This document shows, in pieces, positions 6,404-49,542 of a DNA stretch of 64,000 bases. The stretch is from Lama glama (lineage: Eukaryota). The stretch covers positions 51,648,001 to 51,712,000 of the forward strand of contig CM052816.1 of assembly GCA_028534125.1 (NCBI GenBank), read 5' to 3'. Within the stretch, counting starts at the first letter, position 1; every line of letters starts with the position of its first letter. The notes beneath the pieces were generated by a model. That model was given only the letters and a program-made list of their open reading frames with translations, was not told the DNA's origin and made no database searches. The position numbers and the translations under genes were made by a program.

Positions 6404-6903
6404 NNNNNNNNNNNNNNNNNNNNNNNNNNNNNNNNNNNNNNNNNNNNNNNNNNNNNNNNNNNNNNNNNNNNNNNNNNNNNNNNNNNNNNNNNNNNNNNNN
6501 NNNNNNNNNNNNNNNNNNNNNNNNNNNNNNNNNNNNNNNNNNNNNNNNNNNNNNNNNNNNNNNNNNNNNNNNNNNNNNNNNNNNNNNNNNNNNNNNNNNN
6601 NNNNNNNNNNNNNNNNNNNNNNNNNNNNNNNNNNNNNNNNNNNNNNNNNNNNNNNNNNNNNNNNNNNNNNNNNNNNNNNNNNNNNNNNNNNNNNNNNNNN
6701 NNNNNNNNNNNNNNNNNNNNNNNNNNNNNNNNNNNNNNNNNNNNNNNNNNNNNNNNNNNNNNNNNNNNNNNNNNNNNNNNNNNNNNNNNNNNNNNNNNNN
6801 NNNNNNNNNNNNNNNNNNNNNNNNNNNNNNNNNNNNNNNNNNNNNNNNNNNNNNNNNNNNNNNNNNNNNNNNNNNNNNNNNNNNNNNNNNNNNNNNNNNN
6901 NNN
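6404..6903. other. Assembly gap (500 N)
   Basis: Run of exactly 500 N. Confidence 1.
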
Positions 6904-10623: not shown

Positions 10624-10713
10624 AGTGCTGCAGCAGCTCCCAGTCCAGTGCTAGGAAACATTCCCCCAGGAGATGGCATGCCAGTAGGTCCTGTGCCACC
10701 AGGGTTCTTTCAG
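10624..10713 (+). CDS. SSBP2: SSBP2 exon 5 (90 nt, phase 0-0): [30 protein letters not shown]
   Basis: Acceptor ctttattctttgcag|AGT, donor CAG|gtactc; peptide visible inside ORF 10567..10752. Confidence 0.96.
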
Positions 10714-26815: not shown

Positions 26816-27464
26816 ACATTATAAATAACTTTTTAAGCTCATTTTTCAAGGGGAAGCCTTTTCCATTTAAAATATTGATTCATCATCCGGACACCTTCAA
26901 GCAAATATTTTGATGCCCAAACTATTAAAAAAAAAAAAAGTTCTCCAAATATAAAGAGTAAACAGACTTTCATAGCTACGGGCTTTTTTGAAGATCCTGC
27001 TCTTCCCAGCTTGTCCGCACAGAGATTACTGCCAGGTCTGTCAGTAGACGTACTTTGTATTATTAATAGGTAATCTCTTAGATAAGCACTTTATCATAAA
27101 AGAATTTAAACTTGTTTCAATATCTTGAATTATATTTGAAAGCAAATTGACTTCTGAACACTGAAAAACAAATGTTAGTAGAATATTCTGTTGCTAATAT
27201 GAAAACTCTTCTGGGTTCTTTTGCTGTGTCTGTACCTCAGTAAGTAGGAAGTTGAGGACGTACATGGTTAACTAGATAAATTAGGAATCAATCTGAATAT
27301 TGAGAGCTTATGTTATAACAGCACTCATTTGATATTAAAGTGCTTTACCCATAATAATGTTTATATTTTAGGGAAAAGTAGGTTTTTATCTAAGCTAGAT
27401 TTGGGTGGTATTTTTTTTTTTTGCTTTAATTTTCTAACTATAGATCCAAAATATAAGTGGTTTT

Positions 27465-27501
27465 CTCTTTTCTTTCTTTTTTTTTTTTTTTTTTTTTTTT
27501 T
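27465..27501. repeat. Poly-T / TTTC tract
   Basis: T-rich run including more than 20 consecutive T. Confidence 0.9.
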
Positions 27502-27595
27502 GGCCAAAAAAATATTTGAACTTCTTGGAGGAGGGCATACAAGAGGAAATAAATTAAAAGAGAGACACTCTCTCTCTCCCAATCTTATTCTAGAG

Positions 27596-27675
27596 GGTCC
27601 TGCAGGTTCCCAGCCACCACATGCACAACCTTTCCCTCTCAATAATCCCTTCCCTTGATGAGGCCTCATGGTTGG
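27596..27675 (+). pseudogene. Decayed (pseudo)exon homologous to the SSBP3/SSBP4 'GPPGSQPSPH...MMGPHxQ' exon
   Basis: After a CT-rich tract and AG (27594-95) it reads GPAGSQPPHAQPFPLNNPFP*. A shifted frame from 27655 reads LMRPHGW, followed by atagga where a gtagga donor would be. It lies between the FFQ and PFMSPRY exons. Confidence 0.8.
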
Positions 27676-29615
27676 ATAGGAGACAATCCCATTAAAATAC
27701 ATTTATTCACAATGCCATTGATTAGAGAAAAAATTTCTCTTTTCAAATAGTCCATTTATATTAATACTATAACATTATTTTACATTCAGAGGAACATACA
27801 AATCTCAAATGCTCTATTTCAAATAAGGTACATTTCAGTGTTCATTGATATTTAGTAATGTTTTAATGTAACTTCTACCTTGTATTTTGAAGTGATCTTA
27901 TTATAAACAGGGATTATTAGTAACCTATTTTTATTTCTCCATGTTTCAAAAAGTAAATTGATACTGTACTTTGACATGACATTTAATTATCAAATTTTTT
28001 GGATGAGTCCAGAATTTAAAAGACAGTTTCATAAATGAAATTAGGTGATTGGGAAAATAGCAAAGGGGAGTTGTGAATATTGAGATAAACTTCTAGTTGA
28101 CAGTATAGTTAATTAATTAATCTAATTTAGAGTAGAGTTTCAGAAATGATCAAAGAGACAACTTTGATCAAATGTGTGAAAACTAAACATTTTTTAATGT
28201 TAAAACTGGAAAATCCACTTAGGTTTTATCAGCTAAAGGTGACAATTTTATCTGAATAACCTACTGTTTATGTCCATTTAAAGTAATCTCCTAGAAATAC
28301 ATTAACAGATAAGAACACAGTGAGCAAAAAGTCATGTTACTTAATTCTAAAGTTCTTAATTGTTTGTAAGACCCTCCAAAAGATATTACAGAAAAGTCTA
28401 TACTGCATCAATTTGTTAGGATTTTATTTTTCAGGTGCTTCTTTTAAAAGAAAATATGTGTAGTCATGAATTGCAGGCCTAATTTCTAAAATATTTCTAA
28501 AATTTCTAAATATTTGTAGAAAATGCATTATAAATGTGGAATTTAATTATGTAAAGTACTGTAGATTTGGCTTGCCTAAGCCTTTAGTAAGTTGATTCTT
28601 AATTTATATTAATTCATTCTTAATATTTTACTTAATATTTCAACCCTTTTGAATTGATAATTTGCTTATATTACATGTAATTAATATTACATGTAATTAT
28701 ATATAATTATATATATTATAATTAACCAAAACTATAAAAATGGAATATTGAATAATTTTAGGAATATACTTTTAAAACATTCATGCCCAAATCTGAATGA
28801 TCAGAAATACTCTCCTTCCACTCAACATTGGACAATCATTAAAATGATACCTTTAGGATATTTTTCAGACAGTTTTGGCACTAAGTCATCACATCTTAGC
28901 AGCCTCCAATTCATCCAACAAGATAAATTGACTTCAGTTTTAATATAAGTCCATTTTTTTCTGTTGTTAAAAGTACACACCTCATTGTCTGCTAGGCTCA
29001 AAATATGCAAAGAAATTTCAACTTTAAAATTTATAATCAGTTTTGAATTGTAGCAAACCCTTAAGGAAGGAAAGTCAAAGCTCTTCTAACCACAAATGAC
29101 CCATGGAAAAGAAATTTCTTTCCCTTAAACAGAACTATGAAAGAAAAGATGAAGAAATTTGGCAGCTTTAAAATTACTAAAGGAAAGCAATAACCAAATT
29201 GGATAATTCAATCAAAAATTTATATTCAAAATCTAAATTGTATAATGATGTAGCCAGTAATCCTCTTCATAAAGTCTTCCTGAGAGTCAATTGCCTGAAT
29301 TTCTTAATCTTACTTTTGCCAGTAAGATAGCATTATCTTAATAATACACATTTTAAAAAATATTTTCTACAGTTAACTTTAGTCATCTTTGATATTTTTA
29401 CATTTTCTTTGGAAAAATCTTCCAGGTATTCTACAGAATAAAAAATAGGATGGTAATTGTTCTTAAAAGCCTTTATTCTACTGAAAGAACCACATAAGAA
29501 AGTAAATTGATTTGTTTCATGTAATTCTAAAATTCTTTTAAGTAGTTTATTTTCAGATCTGTATTTTACATTGTATTTTGTTTGTTTGTTTGTTTCGTTT
29601 ATTTTACTTCAATAG

Positions 29616-29675
29616 CCTTTTATGTCACCTCGGTACCCTGGAGGTCCAAGGCCCCCACTGAGGATACCCAACCAG
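29616..29675 (+). CDS. SSBP2: SSBP2 exon 6 (60 nt, phase 0-0): PFMSPRYPGGPRPPLRIPNQ
   Basis: Acceptor ttttacttcaatag|CCT, donor CAG|gtaaga; translated by hand. Confidence 0.96.
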
Positions 29676-29832
29676 GTAAGATTTGTGTGTGCTACTTAAG
29701 TTTGGTGCTTTTTTTTTTCTTTTTAAGAATCAGTAAAGATCTTGAAAATGTCACAAATATTTCCTACCTATAAAAATGTTAAATTATCCTTCATCCCATT
29801 TAATGCTACTTCTAATGATATACAGTCTACTT

Positions 29833-32728: not shown

Positions 32729-33228
32729 NNNNNNNNNNNNNNNNNNNNNNNNNNNNNNNNNNNNNNNNNNNNNNNNNNNNNNNNNNNNNNNNNNNNNNNN
32801 NNNNNNNNNNNNNNNNNNNNNNNNNNNNNNNNNNNNNNNNNNNNNNNNNNNNNNNNNNNNNNNNNNNNNNNNNNNNNNNNNNNNNNNNNNNNNNNNNNNN
32901 NNNNNNNNNNNNNNNNNNNNNNNNNNNNNNNNNNNNNNNNNNNNNNNNNNNNNNNNNNNNNNNNNNNNNNNNNNNNNNNNNNNNNNNNNNNNNNNNNNNN
33001 NNNNNNNNNNNNNNNNNNNNNNNNNNNNNNNNNNNNNNNNNNNNNNNNNNNNNNNNNNNNNNNNNNNNNNNNNNNNNNNNNNNNNNNNNNNNNNNNNNNN
33101 NNNNNNNNNNNNNNNNNNNNNNNNNNNNNNNNNNNNNNNNNNNNNNNNNNNNNNNNNNNNNNNNNNNNNNNNNNNNNNNNNNNNNNNNNNNNNNNNNNNN
33201 NNNNNNNNNNNNNNNNNNNNNNNNNNNN
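32729..33228. other. Assembly gap (500 N), probably containing SSBP2 exon 7
   Basis: Run of exactly 500 N; phase mismatch between flanking exons 6 and 8. Confidence 0.95.
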
Positions 33229-39954: not shown

Positions 39955-42900
39955 GTAAGCAAAATGCTATATTATCCTGTAAAGTGTTCTATTTTCTGTC
40001 TTCTAAAGCTACACCAATTTGTATCACAATTTAAGCTCCTCAATTTCTGTGTAATATAAAGAAACTAGTATAAGTGAACTAAACATGAGCTGTAGTGTTT
40101 GCTTCATTTTTACATTTTTTCTGTGTTTATCTTCCTTCTCTTGCAACCTTTCATTTTTTTCCACTTTCAAATGCCATAAGTGCCAACTTATAGTCTGATT
40201 TTCATGTTTCATTTATCATAAAAATTAGTCTCTTATAAATAAGCATAATCTTCACGTAGTCCATACAAAGTGTAAAGAGATGCTGACACCAGGACCATGA
40301 CATAAGTCTACAGAAGTAGACAAGTGAATACTGATAACTTCATTTTAACATATGATTCCTAAGAGTTTTCAATTCATAAATATATATGTCTTTATTTTTG
40401 CTTTGTTGGGACTGCTGTTTACCCAGGAAGAAGTCTCTCTGGTAGTTTTTCCTTTATTAAAGAACTTTCCATAGTATATTTTCTTTTGAAAATTCAAGAT
40501 ATACTTAGATAAGGAGTAAACTAACAGTTTGGGGGGTTGTTTGTGTGTTTTGATTTGTCTTGTTTACTGAAAAGGCCTTTCAAGACCACAAAGTAGCTGC
40601 TTCTATCAGCCAATATGATGTAGTATGTTAAGATTTATTTTCCATTATGTGACTTGCTCTCAAGGTTCCATACACCCCCAGTACTTGTTAATGTCTTTCC
40701 TTAATTCATTAGGTGGATTAATTTCATGCTGTAGCCTAGAGAAAGTTTACCAGAAATAATCAAAGAGTTCCATATAAGGTTGTGAGTGGTCTCCTTTAAT
40801 GTATTTCCCATTAGTCTGTGTTTTGGTTACTTATATGTCAAGTTAAACAACTCTGTCATCATTTAATGGTATTGAATATATACTGAGGTATGCTCTTTTG
40901 ATGTATGTAGGGATTTTTTTAAAGTTTCTGAAACCATTTTCATGGAAAGCAGTTTTGCCTAAAATAGAAAATAGGTTAATAGATGGGTATCAGCCAGACT
41001 CAAACCTAACAGAACAAGGAAAAAAAGTAGGTCAAATTTTCCTATCACATCTTTCCACTTTTAAAGTAAAAATGGATAGACACGAAGTCTGACTTTTCTT
41101 AAATTCCTCAAAGGCTTAGCCTTTATTAATGGTTGCTACGAAAAGGAATGATATCTTGTGTTTATATCAAAAGCTGAAACTCTTAACAATAGGATTTAAA
41201 TATAGATGTAGATATAGATATAGATACATAATTTACTTTTGTAAGATTCTGAATTTAAAATGGAATTAACTTTTAAGGAATAATTTTGAATGCTATGATC
41301 AACCCAGAATTATCATTAAATATTAAGAATGTATATACTATCATTTTTTATATTATTCATCATGATAATTAGCCAGATTTTACTAGTACAGAAAAAAGTT
41401 ATTCCGTGTGACCATTTAGAGGCTCAAATAGCTGCTTAAAACTGTCTAGTTCCTTTTCACATACACTTAAATACTTATGGGTACATTTAATTCCCTAGCC
41501 TATGGAGACTAAAAATATGGCTGAAAATTTTAATGTGATTGTTTTTGTTGATATTTTGGTTTCTCATTAAATATACCCAGTATTTTTAAATATAATACTT
41601 TATATAGTTATACTTTATATAATATCTGGTTTTTAAAGAACTTTTAAGCCTTACAGACTCAAATTTCCATTGTTTGTTACTATGGACTTTTATTTGGGGT
41701 CTTATATCATTTTCAGTTTTCTATAAATTAAGTTTCCTTCAAAGACAATGAAATTGTAAATATTTCCCCTAACAGGGAAAGTTTGGAAGTATGGAAGATC
41801 CAACCAGAGAGAATAATTCTTTTATTGATACTGGCTCCAACAAAGCAAAAGTGAATTTGAAGAGACATAAATAAAACACTATTATCTCCATTGTACTCAA
41901 CAGAGTAAATTTTATTGAAATCCACTTCATAATTTATTTTCTTTAAAACAAAGTAAATCTCACTGTATTACGATAATTAAGTGTTTCTAACTAGAATTAT
42001 GGCTTTCTTCATGTCACTTTTTACATGTTGGGTAACTTAAAAATCAAGGGAAAAGGCATTGGAGTAGGATTACCTTAAGCTATTTTTTTTTTTTAAGCAA
42101 TATTTTTAACAGTCTAAGATATTTGTGTGTCAGGATGAGGTGGGGTATGCTGAAGAATTCTATATGGATGAGGTTTCTTTAGCTTGTCACTTTTTCTTAT
42201 TTGCCATAAAAGTATAACAACTGTAAAAAAAAAAAAATACCCAACCCTGGTCACTAAAGAAACTAAATACCATATTCTAACTACAACTTTATCTTTTACT
42301 GAGAATAAACTATTTGGAATGAAATTTTGATAATTTTGTTGTTTAAAAAAAATGTTGGTTGCCTCTAAAGAAAATGGTTATTTTAATGTAATTTTGAACA
42401 TTTTCTAACTCTAAACTCAGGATAAATTGTATGTAGTGTCATCTAAAATTAAAATAAGAGTACACTTTTAATGTTTCTATAACTAGTTATATTTAGAAAT
42501 AAAGCTTAATACCCATTTCAGTAATTTGAAGTAGAATTTACAAACTGCAATCATGATGTAAATATTTTCAAATGCATTATAGATTATTTTTAAAGGAAAC
42601 TATATTTCTGAATAAACCACCTTTTTACAAATTTCAAAAGAATGTAGAATTCAACATTAAAACATTTCTAATTCAACTTTGTACACCTCGGTATTTTAAT
42701 TGAAACTGAGGACCAAGAATTTCAAAGAATCTAAATCTTCTTGTTCGGGATAATATCCTATAGAATTATAAAGTTTGTAGAGTTATTATCTTGAAATAAA
42801 ATGACTGAATTACAGAAGAAAAGAATTTTTCTCTTTGGTAATCATGGCTGCCTTCATCTCATCGTATCCAGATACCCTTTACAAAAAATAGACTTCTTTT

Positions 42901-49042: not shown

Positions 49043-49542
49043 NNNNNNNNNNNNNNNNNNNNNNNNNNNNNNNNNNNNNNNNNNNNNNNNNNNNNNNNNN
49101 NNNNNNNNNNNNNNNNNNNNNNNNNNNNNNNNNNNNNNNNNNNNNNNNNNNNNNNNNNNNNNNNNNNNNNNNNNNNNNNNNNNNNNNNNNNNNNNNNNNN
49201 NNNNNNNNNNNNNNNNNNNNNNNNNNNNNNNNNNNNNNNNNNNNNNNNNNNNNNNNNNNNNNNNNNNNNNNNNNNNNNNNNNNNNNNNNNNNNNNNNNNN
49301 NNNNNNNNNNNNNNNNNNNNNNNNNNNNNNNNNNNNNNNNNNNNNNNNNNNNNNNNNNNNNNNNNNNNNNNNNNNNNNNNNNNNNNNNNNNNNNNNNNNN
49401 NNNNNNNNNNNNNNNNNNNNNNNNNNNNNNNNNNNNNNNNNNNNNNNNNNNNNNNNNNNNNNNNNNNNNNNNNNNNNNNNNNNNNNNNNNNNNNNNNNNN
49501 NNNNNNNNNNNNNNNNNNNNNNNNNNNNNNNNNNNNNNNNNN
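49043..49542. other. Assembly gap (500 N)
   Basis: Run of exactly 500 N. Confidence 1.

Follow-up and report, generated by a model that had tools for sequence, protein, structure and literature searches.

The paralogous genes SSBP2, SSBP3 and SSBP4 can carry an exon between the coding exon ending in GFFQ and the coding exon starting with PFMSPR. In SSBP3 this exon has 81 nt and is alternative in mammals, SSBP4 has a counterpart of 66 nt at the same gene position, and in SSBP2 of non-mammalian vertebrates an intact exon of 28 codons is found there, which is already in public annotation. Loss of an exon via failed or weakened splice-site recognition is an established lineage-specific pattern; a review (PMC12992808) gives as an example TNNI3 exon 3, which shrews and moles have lost or inactivated. 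Here we describe a stretch of 64,000 nt from Lama glama (GenBank assembly GCA_028534125.1, contig CM052816.1, positions 51,648,001 to 51,712,000), hereafter called the window, and within it a segment of an SSBP2 intron at 27596-27675 on the plus strand. Judged by its sequence, this segment is very probably a decayed form of the orthologous 28-codon SSBP2 exon (GP[PA]GSQPSPHAQPP.HNPSNP.MGPH.Q), likely non-functional and now skipped; we refer to it as the relic. A preliminary description of this DNA had called it a dead copy of the SSBP exon of the GPPGSQPSPH...MGPHxQ type, ancestral to the paralogues. Our analysis supports this and adds that the exon is also alive in non-mammalian SSBP2. Like the losses treated in the review (PMC12992808), that of SSBP2 concerns an ancestral coding exon which is unrecognised in one lineage and kept by relatives; it differs from them in having no linked phenotype, in being apparently old and in that the paralogues retain the exon. 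The relic is an ordinary case of exon loss and a neat illustration of it. No account of an SSBP2 exon relic, or of isoforms at that position, was found in the literature searched, which left out most subscription journals.

The intron in question is bounded by two SSBP2 coding exons on the plus strand. The upstream exon (10624-10713) encodes 30 residues ending in GPVPPGFFQ, is 100% identical to SSBP2 of many tetrapods and has the donor CAG/GTACTC (a slash marks the exon boundary). The downstream exon (29616-29675) encodes 20 residues starting with PFMSPR and lies between the acceptor ...caatag/ and the donor CAG/GTAAGA. The intron measures 18,902 nt, and the relic, on the same strand as both exons, starts 16,882 nt into it and ends 1,940 nt before the next exon. 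The position between the GFFQ and PFMSPR exons that the preliminary description had assigned to the relic is thus confirmed. In front of the relic lies a 3' splice site (27568-27595, plus strand) with a pyrimidine tract at about 27568-27591, a TAG at 27591-93 and an AG at 27594-95. The 80 nt that follow read GPAGSQP-PHAQPFPLN..NP and, after a frameshift, LMRPHGW. Read straight from 27596, the frame gives GPAGSQPPHAQPFPLNNPFP, two stops, GLMVG and a further stop; the stop pair TGA TGA (27656-58 and 27659-61, plus strand) arises when the former Met-Met codons, which have become TTG ATG, are read in the wrong frame. The frame of 27598 ends in SLPLMRPHGWIG, and its LMRPHGW stops at 27675, directly before ATAGGA. 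The tract with its AG, the GPAGSQPPHAQPFPLNNPFP reading closed by the TGA at 27656-58, the shifted LMRPHGW and the length of 80 nt had all been noted beforehand and were reproduced on the sequence and by translation, the second TGA being an addition. Two further features of the plus strand complete the picture. A perfect tandem 5-mer, CCCTT CCCTT, occupies 27647-27656 and is probably the frame-shifting duplication. At the old donor position (27676-27677) an AT is found where SSBP3 (CAG/gtaaac) and SSBP4 (CAG/gtaagg) have GT, and the last codon is TGG, not CAG.

With the exon of non-mammalian SSBP2 the relic shares the gene and the place between GFFQ and PFMSPR. As references we used Sphaerodactylus townsendi isoform X4 (P0104), Heptranchias perlo X1 (P0110), Lepisosteus oculatus X1 (P0203) and Xenopus tropicalis X3 (P0098). 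The likeness to the squamate exon is close: GPAGSQP.PHAQP lacks one Ser but is otherwise identical, and the tail ..NP.M.PHG. can still be recognised. Unlike the non-mammalian exon, the relic has 80 instead of 84 nt, a frameshift, two TGA codons, no GT and TGG for the final CAG. The SSBP3 exon of the same genome agrees with the relic in gene position, phase, the AG/GGTCCT start and 55 of 77 aligned bases (71%), and differs in being intact, with 27 codons, Pro at codon 3 and the donor CAG/GTAAAC. The paralogous SSBP4 exon, at the same position, shares 46 of 66 bases (70%) with the relic; it comprises 22 codons in an open frame, followed by a GT donor, and its usual AG acceptor is missing in this assembly. 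In the same global alignments SSBP3 and SSBP4 share 53 of 66 bases.

Alignment to the paralogous exon is significant, as the preliminary description had predicted. When the llama SSBP3 exon with its flanks was compared by blastn with both strands of the window, the top match was 27594-27643 (71.7% of 53 columns, E 0.001), the second-best having an E-value of 2.7, and the alignment took in the AG of the relic. The SSBP3 exon peptide in tblastn gave 27596-27643 as top match (13/17, E 1.8e-4; second-best E 0.20). Exon peptides of SSBP2 orthologues match the relic as well, those of gecko (P0104) with 15/19 identities and E 2.1e-5, of sturgeon (P0106) with E 1.4e-5, and of shark (P0110) and gar (P0203) each with E 1.4e-4. 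If the likeness of a proline-rich intronic stretch to the paralogous exon were coincidental, as could be suspected from the short length and low-complexity composition of the segment and from the non-significant result with the Xenopus query, coincidence would have to account for the relic topping the window with four SSBP2 orthologue peptides and with the SSBP3 exon both as peptide and as DNA. It would also have to account for the global alignment score at the relic, which was 21.5 against a mean of -21.05 (sd 5.77) over 17,768 tiles of 80 nt in the window (z 7.4); among tiles clear of the relic, the highest score was 3.5. Both the intron and the strand of the segment, moreover, are the right ones, and the edges of the alignment are those of an exon, with AG/GGTCCT at the 5' end as in SSBP3 and the last codon before the paralogues' GT position at the 3' end. 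The region 27520-27760 is single copy, its sole match in the 2.35-Gb assembly being itself (match counts are lower bounds); membership in a repeat, which the preliminary description had named as a possible refutation, was therefore not found. Because the relic is the top match with a z of 7.4, fits the exon edges and is single copy, an origin by chance or from a repeat is very unlikely, and we give coincidence hardly any weight.

The exon was then sought in SSBP2 proteins, for which a protein collection was searched with the upstream SSBP2 exon (best 120 of 494 matches) and with the gecko SSBP2 exon region (best 120 of 176), and three protein clusters were also read (15 of 612 members). All protein counts given here refer to the matches listed. 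At least 115 proteins have an insert of 16-39 residues between GFFQ and PFMSPR, 27 with SSBP2-type flanks, 27 with SSBP3-type flanks and 61 with other, SSBP4-like flanks. Among the 27 with SSBP2-type flanks the exon is present in 26, the remaining one having an unrelated insert of 31 residues. These at least 26 carriers, in which the examination of non-mammalian SSBP2 suggested by the preliminary description found the exon intact, comprise 16 cartilaginous fishes, three ray-finned fishes (gar, sturgeon and the bony-tongue fish Brienomyrus), one frog (Xenopus tropicalis) and six squamates. In sharks, rays and chimaera (e.g. Heptranchias, Scyliorhinus, Callorhinchus) the exon reads GPPGSQPSPHAQPPPHNPSNPMMGPHSQ, in squamates (Sphaerodactylus, Hemicordylus, two Podarcis, Lerista, Euleptes) GPAGSQPSPHAQPPTHNPSNPTMGPHGQ. 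Squamate isoforms without the exon are also found (Varanus P0046 and Naja P0048, as against P0104 with it), so the exon may have been alternative before its death. SSBP3 proteins likewise occur both with and without the exon (P0116 versus P0242 and others), consistent with its alternative status.

The exon is present in none of the 29 mammal-named SSBP2 proteins among the matches listed, which cover primates, rodents, bats, a carnivore, pangolin, artiodactyls, hedgehog and wombat. In 25 of them GFFQ is joined directly to PFMSPR, three lack the PFMSPR exon too, and one bat isoform has an unrelated insert of 14 residues. The earlier statement that canonical mammalian SSBP2 lacks the exon is thus borne out. 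No SSBP2 of a bird, turtle or crocodilian among the matches listed has the exon. As a side observation, three cartilaginous-fish proteins (P0147, P0154, P0180) are named 'SSBP3 isoform' by NCBI, yet have SSBP2-type flanks and the 28-residue SSBP2-type exon; these names are probably a naming inconsistency in the source.

The residue at position three of the exon bears on descent. The GPAGSQ start of the relic recurs in six of 114 exon-bearing proteins, all of them squamate SSBP2, whereas Pro is the third residue in 27/27 SSBP3 proteins and in 60/61 of the other rows. As GPAGSQ is, among these proteins, common to the relic and squamate SSBP2 only, the relic is best taken as the SSBP2 orthologue inherited in place, not as a copy of the SSBP3 or SSBP4 exon. 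The shared state further suggests that the ancestor from which mammals and squamates descend still had the exon as coding sequence under selection, in agreement with the earlier proposal of a loss long after the paralogues split. One might alternatively suppose that gene conversion, or the insertion of a cDNA fragment, copied the segment into the intron from SSBP3 or SSBP4. Retrocopies of this family do arise, since a processed SSBP3 copy including the 81-nt exon (L003, see below) is present in this genome. What matches at the relic, however, is only an exon-sized piece with its own pyrimidine tract and AG and with no neighbouring SSBP3 exon sequence. It has GPAGSQ, whereas the 27 SSBP3 rows listed all have GPPGSQ, and it is no closer to the SSBP3 exon of its own genome than to the SSBP4 exon. 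Such copying is extremely improbable.

Other searches for homologues returned nothing. A 128-residue open frame whose end lies in the relic (region 79-128) gave no candidate from other assemblies, and its last 48 residues gave no match among protein representatives at E up to 0.001. A degenerate pattern of relic codons 1-13 had no match in metagenomes; since the SSBP3 exon itself fits this pattern, that collection evidently holds hardly any vertebrate copy.

Several lesions separate the relic from the 84-nt ancestral exon. The codon of Ser-8 is gone. The acceptor, tctagAG/GGT as compared to cacAG/GGT in SSBP3, has a G at position -3, which is disfavoured there, and a competing TAG two bases upstream. 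At the 3' end, TGG/ATAGGA offers neither GT nor GC, and it does not fit the consensus of U12 AT-AC donors either. As a coding cassette the relic fails on length, 80 nt not being a multiple of three, and on its phase-0 frame, which is closed by the TGA codons at 27656 and 27659. When one CCCTT is removed, the remaining 75 nt are stop-free in frame and read G P A G S Q P P H A Q P F P L N N P L M R P H G W. An alignment with a 5-base duplication needs three indels and leaves 7/44 mismatches at sites fixed by the ancestral peptide; an alignment with a 1-nt deletion instead leaves 11/46 and was rejected as less economical. From this difference we infer a 5-base CCCTT duplication as the cause of the frameshift. 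Inactivation by a frameshift and by loss of the GT donor (CAG/GT to TGG/AT), as put forward in the preliminary description, therefore stands, with the frameshift better explained as a duplication and with the acceptor weakened as well.

It might be argued that the exon is intact and used in the species, and that the lesions are errors of sequencing or assembly. The assembly is indeed fragmented, with 1,072,352 contigs overall and, in the window, three 500-N gaps. At least six independent errors would be needed, however, namely two or three indels, donor G to A, CAG to TGG, CC to TT and A to T in a His codon, and the complete lack of the exon in the 29 mammalian SSBP2 proteins listed speaks against it too. 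We regard this explanation as very unlikely.

The mismatches correspond to a Jukes-Cantor distance of 0.18 (7/44) or 0.29 (11/46). The mammalian neutral rate is roughly 1-2 x 10^-9 per site per year, and with this rate the release from constraint would date, very roughly, to about 80-290 million years ago. The error on this age is wide because only about 45 sites were counted. The decay is compatible with an early-mammalian loss followed by plain drift, and residual constraint, which the preliminary description had considered, would not be required.

Following from these data, the course of events can be sketched as a proposal. The exon would still have been coding in the amniote ancestor and would have been lost on the mammalian line when its splice-site recognition failed or when it became dispensable, with drift afterwards. 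Drift would include deletion of the Ser codon and probably of a Pro-Ser pair, the 5-base CCCTT duplication that would have shifted the frame and turned the old ATG-ATG into TGA-TGA, and the change of the donor G to A. The SSBP2 mRNA of this species is predicted to join 10713 directly to 29616 (GFFQ/PFMSPR), as 25 of the 29 mammalian SSBP2 proteins listed do.

A number of points weigh against reading the segment as a dead, skipped exon. With only 80 nt and a proline-rich peptide, the segment offers few residues to carry the E-values of 1e-3 to 1e-5, and the Xenopus exon peptide (P0098) reaches E 0.30 at the relic and has its top match elsewhere in the window (40658-40717, E 0.22). The protein lists behind the counts are partial (best 120 of 494, best 120 of 176, and 15 of 612 cluster members). 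Lesions and date of loss were read from one genome, which gives no order of the lesions and does not single out the first lethal one. The decay is uneven: in codons 1-13 none of 21 fixed sites is changed, compared with 7/23 in codons 14-28 (Fisher p 0.009, for a split made post hoc). This may be chance, or some constraint may persist on the 5' half; alternatively, constraint on the 3' half, which varies more in the frog and fish orthologues too, may have been looser to begin with. Finally, a GT at 27671 together with an ATTAAA at 27691 would allow some use.

The last two points lead to the idea that the homologous relic is still used, be it as a 'poison' cassette for nonsense-mediated decay (NMD), as an intronic element regulating splicing, or as a terminal exon formed by intronic polyadenylation, in which case a truncated LUFS-domain protein would result. 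An intact pyrimidine tract and AG speak in favour, as do the unchanged fixed sites in codons 1-13. The GT at 27671 (ATG/GTTGGA, 5/9 consensus positions) would give a stop-carrying exon of 75 nt, and AAG/GTACAT at 27828 agrees with the consensus at 7/9 positions; by the same crude count the real donor of the gene at 10713 reaches 6/9. The ATTAAA lies 35 nt past the first TGA. On the other hand, such hexamers and weak GTs are frequent in AT-rich introns, the ancestral donor has no GT, the acceptor has the G at -3 and the competing TAG 2 nt upstream, and the contrast in decay comes from dividing 44 sites post hoc. No protein ending in GFFQ-GPAGSQ... was found among the best 120 of 494 SSBP2 matches (71-2000 residues). 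Sequencing runs were neutral on use or non-use: 24 runs contain parts of 27300-29700, six of which are recorded as RNA and hold 28-44% of the sampled words. Beyond these sequence features nothing supports use in NMD or as a terminal exon, and we consider continued use of any of these kinds improbable. A related proposition is that mammals converted the exon into a conserved stop-carrying regulatory exon, poison or terminal, with acceptor and codons 1-13 kept by selection. If true, a stop-carrying exon would tune the dosage of SSBP2, an LDB1 cofactor; we hold this conversion, too, to be improbable.

Taken as a decayed SSBP2 exon, the relic explains why mammalian SSBP2, with GFFQ joined to PFMSPR, differs from SSBP3 and SSBP4 and from SSBP2 of other vertebrates. 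The Pro/His-rich insert of 28 residues would be ancestral to SSBP2, SSBP3 and SSBP4 and would have been dropped on the line to mammals, leaving a remnant in the intron. This provides a dated and checkable case of exon death after whole-gene duplication, and it marks a site where gene predictors or callers of splice variants could mis-call a pseudoexon. The understanding of how SSBP proteins work is unchanged by it.

The paralogous exons of the same genome (G000) were located by searching it with the two flanking SSBP2 exons. The SSBP3 exon is present exactly as given in the preliminary description, with 81 nt and 27 codons encoding GPPGSQPSPHAQPPPHNPSSMMGPHSQ at G000:C9:25151779-25151859, cacag/ before it and /gtaaac after it. 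Its flanking exons lie at C9:25130610-25130699 and 25152764-25152823, which puts it 21,079 nt after the GFFQ exon and 904 nt before the PFMSPR exon. A long upstream and a short downstream intron are thus common to SSBP3 and to the layout around the relic in SSBP2. The llama SSBP3 exon has the ...NPSSMM... form, which among the matches listed is found only in mammal-named SSBP3. An intronless SSBP3 copy (L003) fills a contig of 906 bp (G000:C620646:1-906). It starts at the initial Met and covers most of the protein, includes the 81-nt exon (...GFFQ-GPPGSQPSPHAQPPPHNPSSMMGPHSQ-PFMSP, then a stop) and lacks another exon block. With three in-frame stops, two in succession after EKNIT and one between PFMSP and Y, it is most likely, from its sequence features, a processed SSBP3 pseudogene on a tiny unplaced contig.

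The related SSBP4 exon, also named beforehand, is found at the same gene position as a 66-nt exon of 22 codons with an open frame and a GT donor (G000:C11:14259102-14259167, minus strand). In this assembly it has no AG in front (...ggttc/TGTCCTCCGGGC; L007, reverse strand), and its first codon is TGT, not GGT. An internal acceptor, CCCAG/CCT, would yield an in-frame exon of 48 nt (PSPHNPNTPMIGPHIQ). The missing AG could be a real shift of the acceptor or an error of the assembly.

A few minor observations concern the relic and its surroundings. The small hairpin AGAGAGA-cac-TCTCTCT at 27559-27575, which the preliminary description had pointed out at the pyrimidine tract, is present in the sequence but folds like its shuffles (z 0.12; 107 of 200 shuffles were as good), and it was dismissed as a meaningful structure. 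At 27658-27669 lies a perfect 12-base palindrome, ATGAGGCCTCAT, which reads M-R-P-H on both strands; it gives rise to a spurious minus-strand tblastn match (SYPTMRPH) for the gecko peptide. The three assembly gaps of the window, each of exactly 500 N (6404-6903, 32729-33228 and 49043-49542), are all clear of the relic. An AATAAA at 27548 just 5' of the pyrimidine tract and a run of about 33 T at 27470-27502, some 95 nt upstream of the relic, are recorded here with no role suggested for either.

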